DNA from: Nitrosopumilaceae archaeon
GTDB lineage: Archaea; Thermoproteota; Nitrososphaeria; Nitrososphaerales; Nitrosopumilaceae
NCBI GenBank assembly: GCA_965208905.1
Contig: OZ242365.1
Coordinates: 512,001 to 576,000, forward strand
Direction: 5' to 3'
DNA length: 64,000 bases
Shown here: one piece after another, positions 13,933-28,350 of the stretch
Numbering within the stretch: the stretch's first letter is position 1
Layout of the letters: the number at the start of each line of letters is the position of its first letter
Position numbers and translations under genes: made by a program
The notes under the pieces: model-generated
Database searches by the model: none
What the model saw: the letters and a program-made list of their open reading frames with translations, nothing else
Told to the model about the DNA's origin: nothing

Positions 13933-14976
13933 CTACCTCTGATATAGTGTCTTTTCGATATTCAAGTTCAAAACAATCTCTGCTATGTCTACAGAGTACT
14001 CTGCTATACGTCGAATATTAGCTGCTATCTCGCGGGTCCGGAATACTATCTCACTATCCCATATGCCATCTGTTATCTTGTGCAGTTTTTTATCAAACTC
14101 GGATATCTGCGCAGCTTTGATGATGGTTGCCTCGGCCTGGTGGTAGTCGTCCTTGAAGAGTGCAAGACACGCATCATCTAGTACGGAGAGCGCAAATGTA
14201 TTCATATCTTGTAGTATGGCTATGGCTTCAGGATCTATCTTTTTATCGAATTCCAGGACATCTCTAGCTATCAATACGGCGTGGTCACCCATTCGTTCGA
14301 TACATTTTACTAGTATTCTGTATCCAAGGCAGCTTCGAGCGTTCTTGAATCCTATCTCCTTTAGTATATGATCGTTTTGTATAGCTATCTTTAGTTGTCG
14401 TATTATGTAAAAGCCGAATCGGTCTATCTCATCATCCATGTTGGTGACTTCGGTTGCTAGCTCCTTGTTGTTCTCCTGTACTGCTGATAGTGCATCCCGG
14501 GAGACAGACTTTGCCAAATGCACCATCCTCTTGAATGCGCCCTCAACTGTCAGCTCCAACAGGTTGATGAGTACCTGTATTGTAATTATTGTGGAAGAGT
14601 CAGATATTATCTCAGAGCCCATCAGAATTCTTCTTACTGACTCTTTGATGTGCAGACGCTGGTTTGGCCGCAGCCTATTGGTCTTTGGTTTGACATGTAT
14701 GGTTTTGAATCCCATAAAGTATAGTGATATGAGTTTGCGGGTTATGGATGGGGGCTTTTCGTTGGGATCAATCTCTATTGTGGCTGCCTCTGCGTGTGCG
14801 GTCTTTGGCTGGACGCTGGGCGGATATAGTATGAGGTTGGTCGAGCCACTCTTGGATATGCGAATTTGATCTCCCTGCTTTAGACCCAGCTCCAAAATCC
14901 AATGCTTTGGGAGTGATATTATATATGAGGATCTGCCGGTGTACTGTATCTTTCTAGTTTCGTACTTCTCCGTCAT
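13933..14976 (-). CDS. phoU: Phosphate uptake regulator (AbrB + PhoU domains)
   Basis: RKIQYTGRSSYIISLPK.W AbrB N-terminus; DDEIDR and ERMGDHA PhoU repeats. Confidence 0.9.
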   Translation of the reverse strand: MTEKYETRKIQYTGRSSYIISLPKHWILELGLKQGDQIRISKSGSTNLILYPPSVQPKTAHAEAATIEIDPNEKPPSITRKLISLYFMGFKTIHVKPKTNRLRPNQRLHIKESVRRILMGSEIISDSSTIITIQVLINLLELTVEGAFKRMVHLAKSVSRDALSAVQENNKELATEVTNMDDEIDRFGFYIIRQLKIAIQNDHILKEIGFKNARSCLGYRILVKCIERMGDHAVLIARDVLEFDKKIDPEAIAILQDMNTFALSVLDDACLALFKDDYHQAEATIIKAAQISEFDKKLHKITDGIWDSEIVFRTREIAANIRRIAEYSVDIAEIVLNLNIEKTLYQR

Positions 14977-15028
14977 TATACATGAATGTATATTGGTCTA
15001 TATAGAATAATCGGGTCTCCCACAAGTT

Positions 15029-16337
15029 TTGGTGATGTGTGGAAAGTTTGAATCTTTGATCTTTTATCACAATAGACATCACTACATTAGGAGGGTCATG
15101 TATAGGAGTGACCAACATTATCCTCTAAGGATATTGGACGCAAAAAAACTGACCATTAAAGATCACCATCCCCCTACACTAAAACCCGTATGCCAAAATC
15201 AGATTCCTGCTACATTACATCACTATTCTAACCCCTCAAAACCTACGTGCCGTAAAATGATTCCCTGCGGTTCTCTGTACTGTAAGGCTTGCCGTCATGT
15301 CTGGTGTGCCCAAAAACGTGGCATTATATCCTATGGTGCTAATATACTGCAAGACTCTCAAGGATACTTTGTTACATTGACCATACAAGGCTCTAAAAAT
15401 ATGCTGAATCGTCTCATGGATGCCTACAGACAGTTCCGCAAAAACGTCCTGAATCGTTACTATAAAGGCTCATACTATGTTACCATGCTTGAATTCGGTA
15501 CAAAATCTACAAAACGTCCTCATCTACATTTATTGATATATCCGCTTAGTGACCTTCCCACCTGCGGTAAACGTTCTCTGTATTACAGAGTCTACATGGC
15601 AAAAAACCCTCTATCCGGATGCTTTACTGATGCAAAAACGAATAACTGGTTCTGGTCTTGGACGTGTCTTTCATATACAAAAACCCCGTCATGGCTCCGC
15701 TGGTGCTGTCTCCTATGTTGGTAAATACCTCTCAAAAGTCCCTCGTAAAACTGCTAAAATCAACCGTGCTAATACTCGAATGTTCAACTGCTCTAGGAAT
15801 TGGCCTCGCCTAAGACCGTTACCCATATTCTTCTACTCTAACTTAAAATTCGATAAGGGTCATGAGTATGATCATCTTCCCAGTACGCCTCCTCTACCTA
15901 ACTCTCCTCAAGAATTACTCTACATGCGTAAAAAATCCCTCAAAGTATGGACAAAACCCCTCTTTGATAAAATACCTCCTGAAAAACTCTTCTTGATGCT
16001 AAAACACTTCAAGTACTCTTACCAAAAATACTATTACGAAAAGCATAAAATTGAAAAATATGTCTATAAACAGGAAAAATTATACGATGCTCAACTTAAC
16101 GAGTGGCTCTCTGTGTTTAATATGTCTGGTTTGCTGTCTGCCTCTGTTATTGACTTGCCTAAGATTCCGTCTTCTATTGATGTTCTTCTTGCACTAACGC
16201 CTTTCTTGGATGAAAAAGATACTGCTCTTGATAACTTCCGTGAGTGTGGCTATTATGGTTCTGTTACTCTATTGCACTGGCTCTCAAAACGTGAGAACTT
16301 TGACTATGTACATAAACTCGTTTGTACTTCCTTATGA
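15029..16337 (+). pseudogene. Rolling-circle HUH replication initiator (Rep), split by a +1 frameshift
   Basis: ORF 15029-15724 has PCGSLYCKAC, motif I FVTLT and motif II EFG...RPHLHLL; ORF 15549-16337 has motif III YVGKYLSK; removing one A from the A6 run at 15601-15606 fuses them. Confidence 0.8.
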
Positions 16338-16487
16338 TATACCGTGCTGAATGTTACGTTGCTTGGTCTGGCGTGTTCGCCTCTGTATGATATTAGTACA
16401 TGTGATACAACATTGTGTGTTACTCTCGATATACATCTTACATCGTTCACATCTCATTACACTATATGACGTTATACACTTGGTCAT
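16332..16487 (-). CDS. Small Cys-rich Zn-finger protein, similar to 13504-13749
   Basis: RCERCKMYI-x6-CITC...RRTR has the same Cys spacing as RCQICEIFI-x6-CPCC...TKPR. Confidence 0.6.
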   Translation of the reverse strand: MTKCITSYSVMRCERCKMYIESNTQCCITCTNIIQRRTRQTKQRNIQHGIS

Positions 16488-16528
16488 ACATCTATGGATA
16501 AAAATAATAAAAATTTTTATCAAATTAG

Positions 16529-17755
16529 TTATTTCCAGTATTCGCTTCTTACTATATGTGTTAGAATAGCAGATCTTATTTCAACAAGAATATCTTGTCT
16601 GTCGTCTTCTGGTGTGTTTGTCAGTATTGTTTGTAGTAATTCTAGGTACTCTGTGACTGTGGGATGTTTCATGAATTGATCTATGTCTATTGTTGTCGTT
16701 GTCGTGTTTGTTGTCAGAATAAGGTTTGTGTTGACTTGCTCTTTTGTATCAATATCTTTTGCAGAAGCACCGCCATAAACAATAGTATTATCAAACTTGT
16801 TTGTGTTATTTGTATCAATATCTTTTGTGTGGTCTATGTAGTCATTGTCCTTGCCTAATATTTTCTGCTCGTTTATTGGCTCTGTCATACGTGGCACATT
16901 GATGTTACGTGCCTCCCAATAATCTCTAACATCATTAGCGTGTACTGTGTTCATTATGTGGTCTGGGTCTATATGGTGTGGTAATCCTATAAGATGCCCA
17001 AATTCGTGGGCTATTGTGTATTCTATCGCTGGCGCGCTTAGTAGTGTCTGTTGCTTACCTACATTTACATCTGTAAATAGTTGAATTGTACATTGTTCCT
17101 CATCAAATAGGCATCCTGGAATAGCGTTCCCCATTTGTCTACCGTCTCCTATGTGTTGTTGGATTACTATGTCCGCCTGTAATCTACTGTCTGTATAACT
17201 GAATGTTATATTGTTGATGTCTGCCCATTTGTCAAAACCTGCCTCTACGCCTGTTGTTACTATATTTTTGTAATTTGGTGGTAATTCTCTGTCTCGTGGT
17301 AAGTCTATTATCGTATATTTGTACTCGTCTTGTACTGTATTTACGTACCAATATCCGCATAGGCATTCGTGATGGGCTTGATATTCTTCTTCTGTTTTAT
17401 TTATACTACTCTTTACATTGTTAAGATATCTTTCCTCAGTCTCTTTATTCCCACATTCATCTCTTCGTTGATTAAGGGCGTTTATTTCATTTATTTTTTC
17501 TACTGATGGTGCAGTCCAACCATGAGAAATCCTAAATAGTGTATTTATATCACATGTTAGCCAGTGGCTCTCTACAAAACCATCATACCTATAATGTGCT
17601 TCTATGTGGTCTTTTGCCTTTTGTGTTTCCATTACAAAATTTCCTTCTGCAGTCTCTATCCATATGTGATTGTCTATATGGTCAGCATAGGCTGTCATGA
17701 CTGTTGTTAGTGCTATTGTTGTTACCATTGCTATTGTTATTATTGTATTGTTCAT
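16529..17755 (-). CDS. Secreted matrixin/M10-like zinc metalloprotease
   Basis: Signal peptide; HEFGHLIGLPH (HExxHxxGxxH) followed by Met-turn HIM; GFDKW...ITFS...ADIVI. Confidence 0.85.
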   Translation of the reverse strand: MNNTIITIAMVTTIALTTVMTAYADHIDNHIWIETAEGNFVMETQKAKDHIEAHYRYDGFVESHWLTCDINTLFRISHGWTAPSVEKINEINALNQRRDECGNKETEERYLNNVKSSINKTEEEYQAHHECLCGYWYVNTVQDEYKYTIIDLPRDRELPPNYKNIVTTGVEAGFDKWADINNITFSYTDSRLQADIVIQQHIGDGRQMGNAIPGCLFDEEQCTIQLFTDVNVGKQQTLLSAPAIEYTIAHEFGHLIGLPHHIDPDHIMNTVHANDVRDYWEARNINVPRMTEPINEQKILGKDNDYIDHTKDIDTNNTNKFDNTIVYGGASAKDIDTKEQVNTNLILTTNTTTTTIDIDQFMKHPTVTEYLELLQTILTNTPEDDRQDILVEIRSAILTHIVRSEYWK

Positions 17756-18075
17756 TGTGGTCTCTCCTGTCCTTTTCCTTCTTTCATGTTTTTTTCTATA
17801 ATAAGTGCTCCCTTCATTAATCCAATTTCATGACTGTTGTCTATTGCTTCTTGGACTATACGTTCTGGGCTTATTCCTTTGTGCTTTCCTATCGCCTCTA
17901 CTTGTTTGTATAATTCGTTACTAATTTCTATAGGTTTGTATGTGCCGTATTCCGCTTTTATTCCTTCTCTGACTATGTCGTCTGTTTTTTTGTTGCCTTG
18001 TGCTTTGTATTCTTCTAGTGCTTTGTGTGTGTCTTCTGTTATCATTATCTCTCTTGTTGCTTTCTCTTTTGTCAT
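17752..18075 (-). CDS. Small putative DNA-binding protein (two ribbon-helix-helix-like repeats)
   Basis: EIMITEDTHKALEEYK...DDIVREGI and PIEISNELYKQVE...ERIVQEAI. Confidence 0.55.
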   Translation of the reverse strand: MTKEKATREIMITEDTHKALEEYKAQGNKKTDDIVREGIKAEYGTYKPIEISNELYKQVEAIGKHKGISPERIVQEAIDNSHEIGLMKGALIIEKNMKEGKGQERPQ

Positions 18076-18182
18076 TGTTGTTGCTTGTGCTTTGTGTGTA
18101 TTATGTTATTTGTCCTTCAAACTAATACCCACAGTCTCTAAATTCCTGTGCTTGTGGGGAGGGACCAGCAATCGTAAATATT

Positions 18183-19647
18183 GGGAATTATATACAAAAG
18201 TACACAACCCCAATTCTGAGAGTTAATGCCTGAACCACGGATCGCGTCCATACAACTCCCCTTAAATACTAGCATACCGTATTATATATCATGATACGGG
18301 TAGTTAAGGTACCGCTACGGAGGGATGTGTTGTTTGCAGAGTGGGCGCACCGCACGAATCATGCGTCAAGATATGTGTACAACCGCGCCGTATCAGAGTA
18401 TTTGTTTGGTGGCGAATATAGGAGAGGGTGGTAGTGGACATCCTGCAGCCCTTCAAACTGCCGGGCAAGCTGGATTTTACATCAGGTATGCTGGACGATG
18501 ACTACCATACATATGATTTTGGGCCATCAAAGAATGTATTAAAGTACGGCATGTTCAAGCAGCTTACGGAGTGGCGCGCTGAACATGCATGGGTATCTGA
18601 CTTGCCTATGGTGTTTGGCAGGGGCGCCATACAAGATGCCTCTATCGCATGTAGAAGAGTTGTAGATGACAACTCCGGCCATGCGCCATACCGCCGCAAA
18701 GACGGCCGCATCATACTATACAGTGTAAATCCGCCTGTACGAAAAGGTGAGCACACCATACATATCCCCGGATATGGTATTGTAGAGACCGCCAAGCCCA
18801 TCGATGTATCGTGGGACATGCGGTCATTCAAGATAGTTGATGTCACCAAACGGGTGGACAAGCATACAAAGCCGTCAGACCACATGTTTGAGCTGCATAT
18901 TGCCGTGCGTGTACCGGTCGAGCCACACCATAATACAGGTGTAATGCGTGGCGTCGATGTGGGCGGCAAGCACCTGGCAGTTACTGTCGACACAAATGGC
19001 AATGTTACAATACACAACACCCGCCATAGAGCAATCCTGCGGGAGATTGACGCGCTAAAGAGTTTGCGCGACCGCAAGACACGGCATGGCCGGAAGTGGC
19101 ATATATTGAATGACCAAATAAAGCGGCTATACAGGAAGGCCAACAACATAGCCGCGAACACGATAAATCAGACGATTGCGCAGATAACTAGTGGTGTGGA
19201 CGCAGTCGTGGTCGAGTCGCTCTCCGTAAAGGACATGACCACACATGGTGGGAATTACAAACGCGCTATGAACCGTTCAATGCGGGAGAACCATGTTGGG
19301 GAGTTCCTGCGCAAGCTTGCGCAGTGGTGTGAGATACACAACATACCGCTGTTGGGGGCATCTGCCAAATACACGAGCCAGACGTGCCATGTGTGTGGTC
19401 ACGTAGACTCAGAGTCGCGTATATCACGCGACAAATTCATTTGCACAAATTGTACCAGGGTATTCCACGCGGATGTCAATGCCGCCTGGAATATTCTGTA
19501 TAGGGCGGCGGGGAACGTCGTCCTAAGACGGCCGGGGCACAAGGAGGGCTACAAGCCAACACCTTCTATGCTCCACTCCATACAACGAAGTCGTCAGAAA
19601 AGGCATGAGTGTACAGCCGAGGCTGTGTACTTTTGTATATAATTCCC
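18183..19647 (+). mobile_element. Non-autonomous TIR element encoding TnpB (element A)
   Basis: Perfect 24-bp TIR GGGAATTATATACAAAAGTACACA (18183-18206 / 19624-19647); perfect 8-bp TSD TAAATATT (18175-82, 19648-55). Confidence 0.93.
18291..19642 (+). CDS. tnpB: RNA-guided nuclease TnpB, with a frameshift near 18420
   Basis: N-terminus MIRVVKVPL...ASRYVYNRAV from 18291 in another frame; RuvC GVDVG / VVVESL / HADVNAA; Zn finger TSQTCHVC...CTNC; TATA-like CTTAAATA at 18262. Confidence 0.9.
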
Positions 19648-19676
19648 TAAATATTTGGGTGTATTACATATGAGTT

Positions 19677-20147
19677 GTGGACAGTCATCATAAAATCAAT
19701 TGTACTGTTGATGCACTATATGGTGCTGGCGCCTCGGCATACATCCCCTCAGATATAACAATGACGTATTATCGGACGGGTCGTATTCGTGAGGTGTATC
19801 ATAATGGCACGCTCTTGTGCACTCTGCGTATAGATGGGGGACTTGCCATCACTCTGGACTTTGCGCGTATACTACTGCAGTGTAAGGATTTTGATGAGTA
19901 CTGTATAGAAGTAGACGATGATGCAGCTCCCTTTGTTGCCGAAGGCAAGTCGGTCTTTGCATCACATGTAGTACGATGCGGCAAGTATGTCCGGATATCA
20001 TCAGATGTGCCTATATTGTATAACAATGATGTAATAGCCGTGGGGCGGGCGGTCTTGTCTGAACCAATGATTGCAGGGTCCCGTAGGGGCGTAGTGGTAC
20101 GAGTCAGGGATAGTTTAAAAAGAAGAGGCCGCATATTCTCAACATGA
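19677..20147 (+). CDS. PUA-domain protein (archaeosine TGT C-terminal-like)
   Basis: TGRIR, PFVAEGKSVFASHV, AVGRA, VRVR. Confidence 0.85.
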   Translation: MDSHHKINCTVDALYGAGASAYIPSDITMTYYRTGRIREVYHNGTLLCTLRIDGGLAITLDFARILLQCKDFDEYCIEVDDDAAPFVAEGKSVFASHVVRCGKYVRISSDVPILYNNDVIAVGRAVLSEPMIAGSRRGVVVRVRDSLKRRGRIFST

Positions 20148-27995: not shown

Positions 27996-28350
27996 GGTTC
28001 CTCCCGCAAGGACGGATACTATGTGTCACATCTCAACTATCTTTTTAAACATGTAAACCGTACTGTACGCTAATGGTACTACGCACATACACATTCGGCG
28101 TTATATTCCGTAAAGGGTTCAAGAAGGAGATGTTGGCCAGACAGGCCAGCATGGACAGGTACGTGTATAACAAACTAGTGGAAACCTTCAAGGAAGAATA
28201 TCGTAGAACAGGTAGAGTAAATGCGACGCAGGGTACCCTGAGAAACGTCAAGCACAGACCGGGGAACGAGATGCTCTATGCACCGTCGTCCTCTGGCGTG
28301 ACGTGTGATGTATTGTGGATGCGGGAACCCCCGTGCTTGCAGTAGGAACC
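27996..28350 (+). mobile_element. MITE-like internally deleted tnpB element with IS6-like TIRs (element C)
   Basis: TIR GGTTCCTCCCGCAAGGACGG vs reverse complement GGTTCCTACTGCAAGCACGG (17/20); TSD GGATATAA (27988-95) / GGATATGA (28351-58). Confidence 0.85.
28073..28345 (+). pseudogene. tnpB: TnpB N-terminal fragment fused to a 3'-end remnant
   Basis: MVLRTYTFGV...LARQASMDRYVYNKLV matches the TnpB N-terminus (RYVYN/RFVYN in elements A and B); no RuvC domain. Confidence 0.75.

Follow-up and report, generated by a model that had tools for sequence, protein, structure and literature searches.

Small rolling-circle plasmids of the pGT5/pTN1 and pC194/pUB110 types are about 3 kb long and carry a Rep, an RHH/CopG-like regulator and cargo. 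To our knowledge, no genetic system exists for ammonia-oxidising archaea, and hardly any small replicons have been described from them. The Rep cassette analysed here lies in a 64,000-nucleotide stretch (the window) of the genome of a marine, ammonia-oxidising Nitrosopumilaceae archaeon and has the size, the Rep with an RHH/CopG-like regulator and the cargo of such plasmids, whereas its genes are convergent and not co-directional. With the PF23343 Reps (Microviridae VP4/gpA-type and related plasmid and prophage Reps), the cassette Rep has in common the HUH motif, the YxxKY motif, motif I and the Pfam score. It is only 14-22% identical to the viral models listed and differs by an N-terminal four-Cys cluster and a helical C-terminal domain of ~130 aa ending Y-G-S-x-K-L-L. 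No capsid gene is linked to it, and a tblastn search of plasmid and phage records with its homologue P0003 gave no match.

A survey of 20 thaumarchaeal genomes reports a single cryptic integrated element, NitAQ6f-E2, that encodes a rolling-circle endonuclease; its Rep is homologous to SNJ1 RepA and thereby to IS91 transposases, and XerC/XerD integrases are the commonest genes in the elements of Table 1 (PMC6563490, in the parts drawn on here). Like NitAQ6f-E2, the cassette is small, is integrated in the genome of an ammonia oxidiser and encodes a rolling-circle Rep; RHH-type regulators are common in such elements. Its Rep belongs to PF23343 and has no IS91-family match, which sets it apart from the Rep of NitAQ6f-E2 as described there; in contrast to the elements of the same parts of that survey, the cassette has no integrase or att repeats and is seated inside a MITE. 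This MITE shares with IS6/IS26 elements and their MITEs (PMC7986276, as excerpted) the 8-bp duplication, short ends with GG tips, CAA(G/A) and a form of a few hundred bp. It differs from that excerpted description in that no DDE_Tnp_IS240 lies inside, cTGTt is replaced by CCTCCC and the enclosing element is single-copy. IS91/ISCR elements, Helitrons and Replitrons (bioRxiv 10.1101/2022.12.15.520654, in part) have, like the cassette, a Rep-class HUH enzyme and no junction duplication; the cassette is distinguished from them, so far as those parts describe them, by the lack of a family-level match, repeated copies, a fused helicase and demonstrable conserved ends.

The MITE, its target duplication and the cassette boundaries

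The cassette is situated between divergent phoU and PUA-domain genes, in a region that we read, on balance, as a nested series of three insertions. The outermost repeat consists of two 8-bp copies, AATAATCG at 15006..15013 and AGCAATCG at 18167..18174, which match at 6/8 positions. In the 85%-identical relative G008, AAGAATCG occurs only once and directly adjoins the PUA gene region, and the alignment of G008 with the genome under study (G000) stops at 15013. The flank repeat noted in the first-pass annotation is thus a true target duplication, because G008 has one copy at an empty site of the kind that the annotation had suggested seeking in relatives. The two copies are the same in the 97%-identical sister genome G005, including the 2/8 positions at which they differ.

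Within the duplication, the left arm of an IS6-like MITE (15014..15121, plus strand) is orthologous to G005 and begins with the left inverted end GGTCTCCCACAAG (15014-15026, plus strand). The right inverted end, reverse complement GGTCCCTCCCCACAAG, is at 18151..18166 on the minus strand and is present in G005 with one 1-nt indel. Judged by the IS6 criteria of PMC7986276, the ends have GG tips and CAAG but no cTGTt; 13/16 positions pair, with 3 gap positions. The right-end motif is unique in the window (0 occurrences expected) and does resemble the ends of 'element C' (27996-28350), a likeness pointed out earlier.

In G005 the same ends and duplication surround only 176 bp, with 51 bp in the place where G000 has about 3,026 bp (15122/25-18150). 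Homology of G005 to G000 ends at 15124 and resumes at 18151, leaving a 111-bp left arm common to both. An X6 metagenome contig of 181 bp likewise joins 15121 to 18151, with 51 letters between matching stretches of 100 and 30; other X6 contigs hold the Rep cassette. Since G005 and X6 carry the same ends, duplication and left arm around 51 bp, the cassette is nested inside the MITE, and comparison of the alleles likewise shows that the MITE and a TnpB-only IS were inserted separately. The foreign cassette spans 15122..18150 (~3.03 kb, left edge ambiguous within 15122-15125), narrower than the 15006..18174 unit first proposed. Integration by borrowed transposon ends, or a hybrid element, does not fit alleles that keep the ends, the duplication and the left arm without the 3 kb. 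Two parts of the earlier account are retained, namely that the segment is foreign and that the IS6-like ends flanking it are genuine; these ends are probably not its vehicle.

Past CAAG, the inverted ends of G005 keep matching in ~9/12 further columns, whereas the match in G000 falls to 4/13 exactly where homology to G005 breaks. Formally, the reverse event, loss of 3 kb from G005 with a 51-bp filler put in its place, would give the same pattern as the replacement of 51 bp by 3 kb. The MITE arm has 12 differences between G000 and G005 over 108 aligned positions, with 6 gap columns (2 indel events); at third codon positions of the flanking genes, 28/505 differ. Because the duplication is degenerate and identical in both genomes, the MITE insertion is old. 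G000 and G005 each have one copy of the MITE, and the 8 other genomes of the genus gave no significant match to it. Judging from these alignments, the ends and the duplication belong to an old, single-copy, IS6-type MITE of about 176 bp. The cassette, at 37.8% G+C where the genome has 45.6%, seems to be a recent, AT-rich newcomer, its youth following from its almost intact genes. The strand skew described in the first-pass annotation is present (plus strand A.241, C.210, G.168, T.382) and mostly tracks gene orientation. No direct or att repeats were found at the cassette junctions.

The Rep protein and its rare family

The rep gene (15134..16337, plus strand) encodes an N-terminal Cys cluster followed by an HUH nuclease with YVGKY, and is split by a frameshift near 15584-15590 into a first half within ORF 15029-15724 and a second half within the +1-frame ORF 15549-16337. 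The former ORF matches Pfam PF23343 (REP_ORF2-G2P; E 3.9e-7, 30.7 bits, cut-off 27.8). The same family was found in 10/10 Rep homologues (best E 9e-14), and both frames are colinear with intact homologues of 353-479 aa. Invariant across the homologues are C..C..C, FxT, ExG..R(P)HxH and YxxxY..K; FVTLT, EFG..RPHLH and YVGKY of the cassette sit on the invariant columns F81, T83, E129, G131, R136, H138, H140, Y203, Y207 and K210. The model of P0003 (pLDDT 76.5) has the HUH nuclease fold and matches, with moderate Z values, the SIRV1 ORF119 Rep (Z 8.1, rmsd 3.0, 113/116 aligned) and the Helitron nuclease (Z 7.3, 149 aligned). The frameshift-joined protein is an HUH rolling-circle Rep of the two-tyrosine type, as had been surmised from its motifs. 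A PDB sequence search with its N-terminal part gave chance matches only (E > 0.5). Translation would start at the TTG at 15134, with the ATG at 15257 as the alternative; the family profile match begins at 15149.

The frame change lies between GKRSLY and TESTWQKT, and the reading frame is therefore not intact in G000. It is a 2-nt deletion, the single frame-breaking change in the 1.2-kb gene, and contigs from X1 and X5 share it. A variant without the deletion, in which AA is inserted behind 15586 and the frame is restored, is represented by one X7 contig (depth 2.2).

Comparison of the P0003 model with BFVD yielded 277 viral models at E<=0.001, with microvirus Reps at E about 1e-8; among the best 50 of the 277, the three named entries are microvirus or VP4 replication proteins. 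Neighbours of the Rep in a language-model atlas are PF23343 clusters, mostly Phixviricota. Weak Rep_1 matches were seen in 2/10 homologues. The family is very rare: a search of 1.84 billion representatives returned 13 matches, comprising 11 other true family clusters, the window's own ORF and one spurious hit. No relatives were detected in 2.9 million viral contigs (single-protein pattern and family alignment), in species-representative genome contigs (family alignment, one peptide pattern only) or by a word-index search with the C-terminal Rep ORF. Within the class, Rep was absent from 399/400 other genomes searched, outside two weak fragments. Metagenome contigs gave one distant locus, L048, with 26% identity on a 4.2-kb contig, whose neighbouring ORFs resemble phage tail-collar proteins as judged by eye from sequence. 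Nine of the 15 Rep cluster members read sit on contigs of 1.4-3.9 kb, sizes that could also reflect repeated transposons.

At another locus, G005 holds a second, degraded and divergent Rep C-terminal fragment, convergent with a C-terminal fragment of the protease described below, which suggests an independent integration. The possibility that this remnant adjoins an IS6-like MITE was considered and rejected; judged by eye from its translation, the repeat next to the remnant resembles the 3' end of a multi-copy transposase gene.

The convergent minus-strand operon

Convergent with rep is a minus-strand operon of an RHH-like gene, a protease gene and a Zn-ribbon-like ORF. The putative tandem RHH regulator (17752..18075, minus strand, 107 aa) has a stop that overlaps the protease start by 4 nt. 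Its earlier description as RHH-like stands with reserve: an RHH-like ORF is there, but family matches are weak (Pfam 56B_RHH, E 0.047; PHROGs repressor families, E 0.0012-0.035). Neither 40 relatives nor a 5.8-billion-cluster collection contained homologues, and its single-sequence model (pLDDT 46.5) was too poor for a fold search. The protease gene that had been annotated (16529..17755, minus strand) was borne out by a Peptidase_M10 match over the cut-off (E 7e-7); it encodes a metzincin-type metalloprotease, predicted to be secreted, with HEFGHLIGLPH. Homologues are found in G002 (55% identity) and G005 (41-47%, one piece with an internal TAG), and a paralogue in G000 is 57% identical over residues 163-303; none of these adjoins Rep or RHH. 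The protease is probably cargo related to host genes. The last gene of the operon, a Cys-rich, Zn-ribbon-like ORF of 63 aa in the ORF list (16332..16523, minus strand), corresponds to the zinc-finger gene noted before; it is present, but has no Pfam or PHROGs match and is uncertain as a real gene. The five cassette ORFs scanned with Pfam and PHROGs gave no match to capsid, integrase or DDE families, in line with what had been reported. A bacterial-type promoter and terminator scan, with models ill-suited to archaea, gave nothing above shuffles.

Origin of the cassette

We favour, with a probability of about 0.55, the reading that the cassette is a decaying, integrated rolling-circle plasmid-like element and not a hybrid transposon. 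It is unlikely, in our estimate, that the whole of 15014-18166 is instead a non-autonomous IS6-type transposon with the Rep cassette as cargo, inserted once and mobilised in trans by an IS6-family transposase, with the 176-bp element of G005 as an internally deleted descendant. Such a unit would account for inverted ends and an 8-bp duplication that enclose the cassette exactly, and for the single copy of the 176-bp element, as expected of a deletion derivative; moreover, DDE_Tnp_IS240, the IS6 transposase domain, scores over the cut-off at 13 loci elsewhere in the genome, though in none of the cassette ORFs, and the genome holds many elements with similar ends, some internally deleted to 174-570 bp. 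However, nothing in the cassette matches the 51 bp found in G005, so a plain deletion is no explanation. The same 51-letter form also occurs in X6, and the G005 stretch lengthens the match between the inverted repeats, as native MITE sequence should. The old duplication and ends also contrast with a rep that is nearly intact. Full-length elements of the genome with related ends carry tnpB and not a transposase, and the pairs of ends within a few kb of each other, as read from the genome list, enclose no cargo besides tnpB; at three IS6-transposase loci, no inverted ends were found at seed 9. The search for further copies with the same ends, which had been proposed, therefore succeeded for elements with similar ends but not for the 15014-18166 unit, which is single-copy, and G005 and the X6 contig keep the ends without the cassette. 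Inverted ends and a target duplication around a cassette do not prove that these ends moved it.

We give still less credence to a rolling-circle transposon like IS91, ISCR or Helitrons, in which the Rep would act as transposase, moving a single strand from origin end to terminator end and inserting next to a short target without duplication. IS91 has a Cys-rich N-terminus before the nuclease, and CTTG is its target; IS91/ISCR elements as a group insert next to CTTG/GTTC. The cassette Rep combines two tyrosines with an N-terminal Cys cluster, the cassette's own junctions show no duplication, and CTTG (18151-18154) abuts the right junction, although a 4-mer at one junction is weak evidence (2/256 by chance) and a target loss of 51 bp would be atypical. 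A 5-bp hairpin at the right tip (18130-18134 / 18146-18150), the Helitron nuclease among the fold matches, the second insertion in G005 and the short contigs of the homologues are also consistent with an element of this kind. Against this, neither the window ORFs nor 10 homologues gave an IS91-family match (Y2_Tnp or Zn_Tnp_IS91) at E<=0.1, the cassette is present at one copy per genome, nearly all of the class genomes searched lack the Rep, and the cargo genes form a separate convergent operon. The least probable of the readings, to our mind, is the remnant of an integrated, microvirus-like ssDNA virus that has lost its capsid genes. The Microviridae/Phixviricota replication proteins are the nearest fold and feature neighbours of the family, and its distant relative lies beside the tail-collar-like ORFs; but no capsid or other virion protein family is recognised in the cassette by Pfam or PHROGs, and neither the viral contigs nor the phage records contain a relative. 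The cassette is also about the size of the homologue contigs, leaving little room for a ~1.5-kb capsid gene beside a rep of 1.1-1.4 kb.

If the cassette is a plasmid-like element, as we favour, its history may be reconstructed as follows. An IS6-type MITE of ~176 bp inserted just beside the phoU TATA box, making the 8-bp duplication, between the branching of G008 and the split of G000 from G005; this step is shown by the comparison of genomes. Into the MITE interior, a circular rolling-circle replicon of ~3 kb would then have integrated recently in the G000 lineage, replacing 51 bp. It would have carried the Rep, with its Zn-binding Cys cluster, HUH motif and two catalytic tyrosines (YxxKY), and a divergent RHH/protease/Zn-ribbon operon, and the circle would have been opened in the control region between the Rep start and the RHH-operon promoter. 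The circular plasmid past and the chemistry of integration are our reconstruction: the cassette would have entered without MITE ends, integrase or target duplication, by joining that may have been either Rep-catalysed or illegitimate. No circular form, circular joint or excess depth, as one might look for in such a replicon, was seen in contigs of 4 runs, which cannot show absence. No origin or nick site emerged: the fold of a hypothetical circle junction does not exceed that of shuffles (MFE -10.9 vs -11.9 +/- 3.1), and CTTGATA occurs twice, about the chance expectation. The 2-nt deletion would later have broken rep in this strain, leaving the cassette an immobile, decaying remnant.

Taken with its intact relatives from metagenomes, the cassette suggests that ammonia-oxidising archaea harbour a rare family of small Rep replicons. 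A circular member, if recoverable, would be a candidate vector backbone, and a natural strain variant has an unbroken rep. A more speculative idea, which we regard as improbable though worth stating, is that the family is an undescribed lineage of ~3-4 kb rolling-circle replicons of marine Nitrosopumilaceae-like archaea, kin to microvirus Reps, that integrate without integrase via their own Rep and favour hairpin-forming transposon ends such as the MITE interior. Were this true, plasmids, ssDNA viruses and Rep transposons would have a natural intermediate in this lineage, which could also supply a candidate first small plasmid backbone for ammonia-oxidising archaea.

The locus also serves as a worked example of nested insertions. 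The last step was the arrival of the TnpB-only IS (18183..19647, plus strand), a later and separate insertion outside the cassette, 8 bp beyond the right edge of the MITE. This IS is missing at the orthologous site in G005 and in one X6 contig (loose end at 18182), and is flanked by an 8-bp duplication, TAAATATT, at 18175-18182 / 19648-19655. Its TnpB matches Pfam Cas12f1-like_TNB and OrfB_IS605. Genome-wide, 15 near-full-length copies and additional fragments of this IS are present, with inverted ends and 8-bp duplications in their flanks; the Rep cassette occurs once in G000.

Rep cassette and the rarity of its family

The ~3.03-kb Rep cassette (15122/15125-18150) is best read as a decaying integrated rolling-circle replicon that is nested, by chance or target preference, in an IS6-type miniature inverted-repeat element (MITE, ~176 bp without the cassette). 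To the left of the segment at 15006-18174 lies a PhoU-domain gene on the minus strand (13933-14976), and to its right a PUA-domain gene (19677-20147); the window is G000:C1:512001-576000 of the complete 2.21-Mb genome G000. A split Rep is encoded on the plus strand: the first frame (ORF 15029-15724) matches PF23343 (REP_ORF2-G2P) above the cut-off and the second (ORF 15549-16337) continues it. Three minus-strand ORFs form a tightly packed operon: the first (18075-17752) encodes 107 aa, the second (17755-16529) encodes a 408-aa protein with an above-cut-off Peptidase_M10 match and the motif HEFGHLIGLPH, and the third (16523-16332) is a Cys-rich ORF of 63 aa. The protease bears out one of the convergent genes of the first-pass annotation and the Cys-rich ORF may be another; the RHH assignment of the 107-aa protein finds weak RHH/repressor matches only (Pfam E 0.047; PHROGs E 0.0012-0.035), and homologue searches left this protein an orphan. 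Capsid, integrase and DDE genes had been described as absent, and none of these families was matched in family scans of the cassette ORFs. The reported strand skew was reproduced as a pyrimidine-rich plus strand (T.382, G.168), much of the excess arising because the minus-strand genes have A-rich coding strands.

The cassette Rep is a genuine HUH enzyme, and its family is very rare. When 1.84 billion cluster representatives were searched exhaustively with phmmer, 13 matches were obtained, comprising G000's own ORF, one spurious match and 11 real family members of 180-479 aa, the 180-aa one being broken. Both window frames could be aligned end to end with intact homologues; the invariant columns include three Cys, FxT, ExG..RxHxH, Y203 and Y207 with K210, and SRxWP. 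PF23343 was matched by all 10 homologues scanned (best E 9e-14), which also gave weak Rep_1, RepSA and Phage_GPA matches and no IS91-family match. The AlphaFold model of the intact homologue P0003 (pLDDT 76.5) resembled the SIRV1 ORF119 Rep (Z 8.1, 113/116 residues) and a Helitron nuclease (Z 7.3). The family match, the invariant motifs and these HUH folds support the rolling-circle Rep originally proposed. Comparison of the P0003 model with viral models yielded 277 matches at E<=0.001; among the 50 listed, the three named rows were microvirus or VP4 replication proteins. Language-model neighbours of the Rep were PF23343 clusters, for the most part from Phixviricota.

Neither the phage nor the plasmid records contain the family, and in the protein collections searched it is rare. 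Viral contigs yielded no relatives; in 401 genomes of the class and in the 40 closest relatives, none turned up beyond this genus. Of 15 members of the homologues' clusters, nine come from contigs measuring 1.4-3.9 kb and six from contigs of 5-122 kb. A 4.2-kb metagenome contig (L048 1-4152) encodes a distantly related Rep of 330 aa (26% identity) that has its motifs in the same order, beside ORFs that by eye resemble phage tail-collar proteins. A survey of 20 thaumarchaeal genomes describes one integrated element with a rolling-circle endonuclease, SNJ1-RepA/IS91-like, and its Table 1 has integrase as the commonest gene (PMC6563490). By that description, rather than by sequence, the cassette Rep differs in belonging to another Pfam family, and the cassette has no counterpart of that commonest gene. 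What makes the cassette notable is chiefly how rare its Rep family is, and that small replicons are scarcely known from ammonia-oxidising archaea.

Comparison with the homologues places the frame change in rep between GKRSLY and TESTWQKT (~15584-15590), outside any homopolymer. The broken form recurs in contigs of sequencing runs X1 and X5, from two studies. One contig of X7, an independent metagenome, carries an AA insertion behind 15586 (depth 2.2); read by eye, it gives ...SLYYKESTWQKT..., a continuous frame in line with the family alignment. This unbroken variant argues for a recent 2-nt deletion in the G000 strain. Five of the six X5-G000 differences within rep fall at first or second codon positions (hand count), a pattern that fits a gene released from selection.

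Inverted ends and the site in relatives

The left inverted end reads GGTCTCCCACAAG (15014-15026) and the right end (18151-18166) has the reverse complement GGTCCCTCCCCACAAG; the two pair at 13/16 positions and are flanked by AATAATCG and AGCAATCG. The more distant relative G008 (identity ~84% on the phoU-side flank, 74% on the PUA-gene side) aligns until 15013 and resumes at 19691, with 29 bp and a single AAGAATCG between, a true empty site. The ends and flank duplication noted at first pass are real, but on these comparisons would belong to an element other than the cassette. In the sister genome G005 (flanks 97% identical) the two ends, the two copies of the duplication and the left arm of 111 bp are all present, but the stretch corresponding to 15124-18151 measures 51 bp where G000 has 3,026 bp. 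Similarly, a 181-bp contig of run X6 connects 15121 with 18151 and has a further 51 letters that match neither side; as the cassette is present on other X6 contigs, both alleles circulate. The first-pass interpretation is supported in part: the segment is foreign and encodes a rolling-circle Rep, but the borrowing of transposon ends is not supported, G005 and the X6 contig having 51 bp in place of the cassette.

The 176-bp element occurs once each in G000 and G005, and eight further genomes of the genus gave no significant match to it. Its ends are similar to those of abundant G000 elements (GGTTCCTCCCGCAAG..., 8-bp duplications) that are 1.5-1.6 kb at full length and 174-570 bp in deleted forms. 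The IS6 family is described as having such 8-bp duplications, together with GG tips and a CAA motif (PMC7986276). The MITE duplication abuts a CTATATAG box ~30 nt upstream of phoU.

Order and route of cassette entry

In the order that we prefer, the MITE is old and the cassette young, because of the 51-bp evidence, the degenerate duplication, the near-intactness of rep and the G+C contrast (cassette 37.8%, genome 45.6%). No counterpart of the G005 51 bp was found in the cassette; they lengthen the inverted-repeat match (~9/12 columns), which in G000 falls to 4/13 exactly where G005 homology stops. The duplication copies differ at 2/8 positions, identically in both genomes, so the MITE insertion is older than their split. 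Between G000 and G005 the MITE arm shows 12 differences in 108 positions plus two indel events, and the flanking genes differ at 28/505 third codon positions. A 1.2-kb rep drifting since the split should have gathered several indels; one is present, and it is polymorphic. That the whole unit instead arrived as a cargo transposon and was then gutted in G005 is unlikely, as this requires a 3-kb deletion plus a 51-bp filler that is MITE-like by coincidence, together with long-term preservation of rep.

Neither a duplication nor a direct repeat is present at the junctions of the cassette itself. The likely TTG start of rep (15134; the family profile match begins at 15149) follows the left break by 10-13 nt, and the right break is 75 nt upstream of the RHH gene, so that a circle would have been opened within the ~85-90-bp divergent control region separating the two start codons. 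A 6-bp/3-nt hairpin spanning the left junction, a 5-bp hairpin at the right tip and a CTTG adjoining the right junction are each weak evidence alone, and folding of the joined tips does not exceed that of shuffled sequences; we therefore infer, rather than conclude, that integration may have occurred by Rep-mediated or illegitimate joining. At a different locus in G005, a divergent Rep C-terminal fragment is convergent with a protease C-terminal fragment, as in the architecture of the cassette. This degraded second Rep-protease module (L054 4062-5206; G005:C1, about 1824061-1825205) adjoins a transposase gene fragment and, together with the short homologue contigs, supports an element integrating by itself. 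The module lies on the edge of an island of genes specific to G005, in which there are large ORFs of uncharacterised function.

The cassette protease is probably a host-derived passenger. Its relatives in the host genus show 55% identity in G002 and 41-47% in G005, and a G000 paralogue shows 57% across the catalytic part; these relatives have no Rep or RHH gene alongside.

TnpB-type insertions and IS6 transposases

Beyond the right edge of the MITE, at a distance of 8 bp, lies a TnpB-only IS (type T, 18183-19647), whose insertion created a duplication of TAAATATT ~21 nt before the start of the PUA gene. This later insertion is lacking from the site in both G005 and an X6 contig. The TnpB N-terminal 47 codons (18291-18434) are out of frame with the 404-aa main ORF (18428-19642), and this copy may be broken. 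Three G000 IS families (e.g. 18183-19647 and 27996-28350 in the window) encode a TnpB-like protein only, but their inverted ends are IS6-like and they are flanked by target duplications of 8 bp; IS200/IS605 elements are described as usually having neither inverted ends nor target duplications (PMC3119063). G000 contains 15 near-full-length type-T copies plus fragments, eight full-length and one near-full-length type-A copies (1.52 kb, 464-aa protein), and 12 full-length and one near-full-length type-B copies (1.62 kb, 528-aa protein). These TnpB-type elements also leave many deleted derivatives of 174-570 bp.

DDE_Tnp_IS240, the IS6 transposase domain, exceeded the cut-off at 13 G000:C1 loci, in long open frames of 356-501 aa (for example 1337897-1338319 and 2095979-2096395; L055-L060). 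These loci are candidates for mobilising the TnpB elements and MITEs in trans; a search at seed 9 gave no matching inverted ends for the three loci tried. The IS6-like elements here adjoin core promoters (14977-15013; 18175-18182 / 19648-19676), and in G006, another member of the genus, the spacer upstream of phoU likewise contains a type-T-like end (L013 2225-2250).
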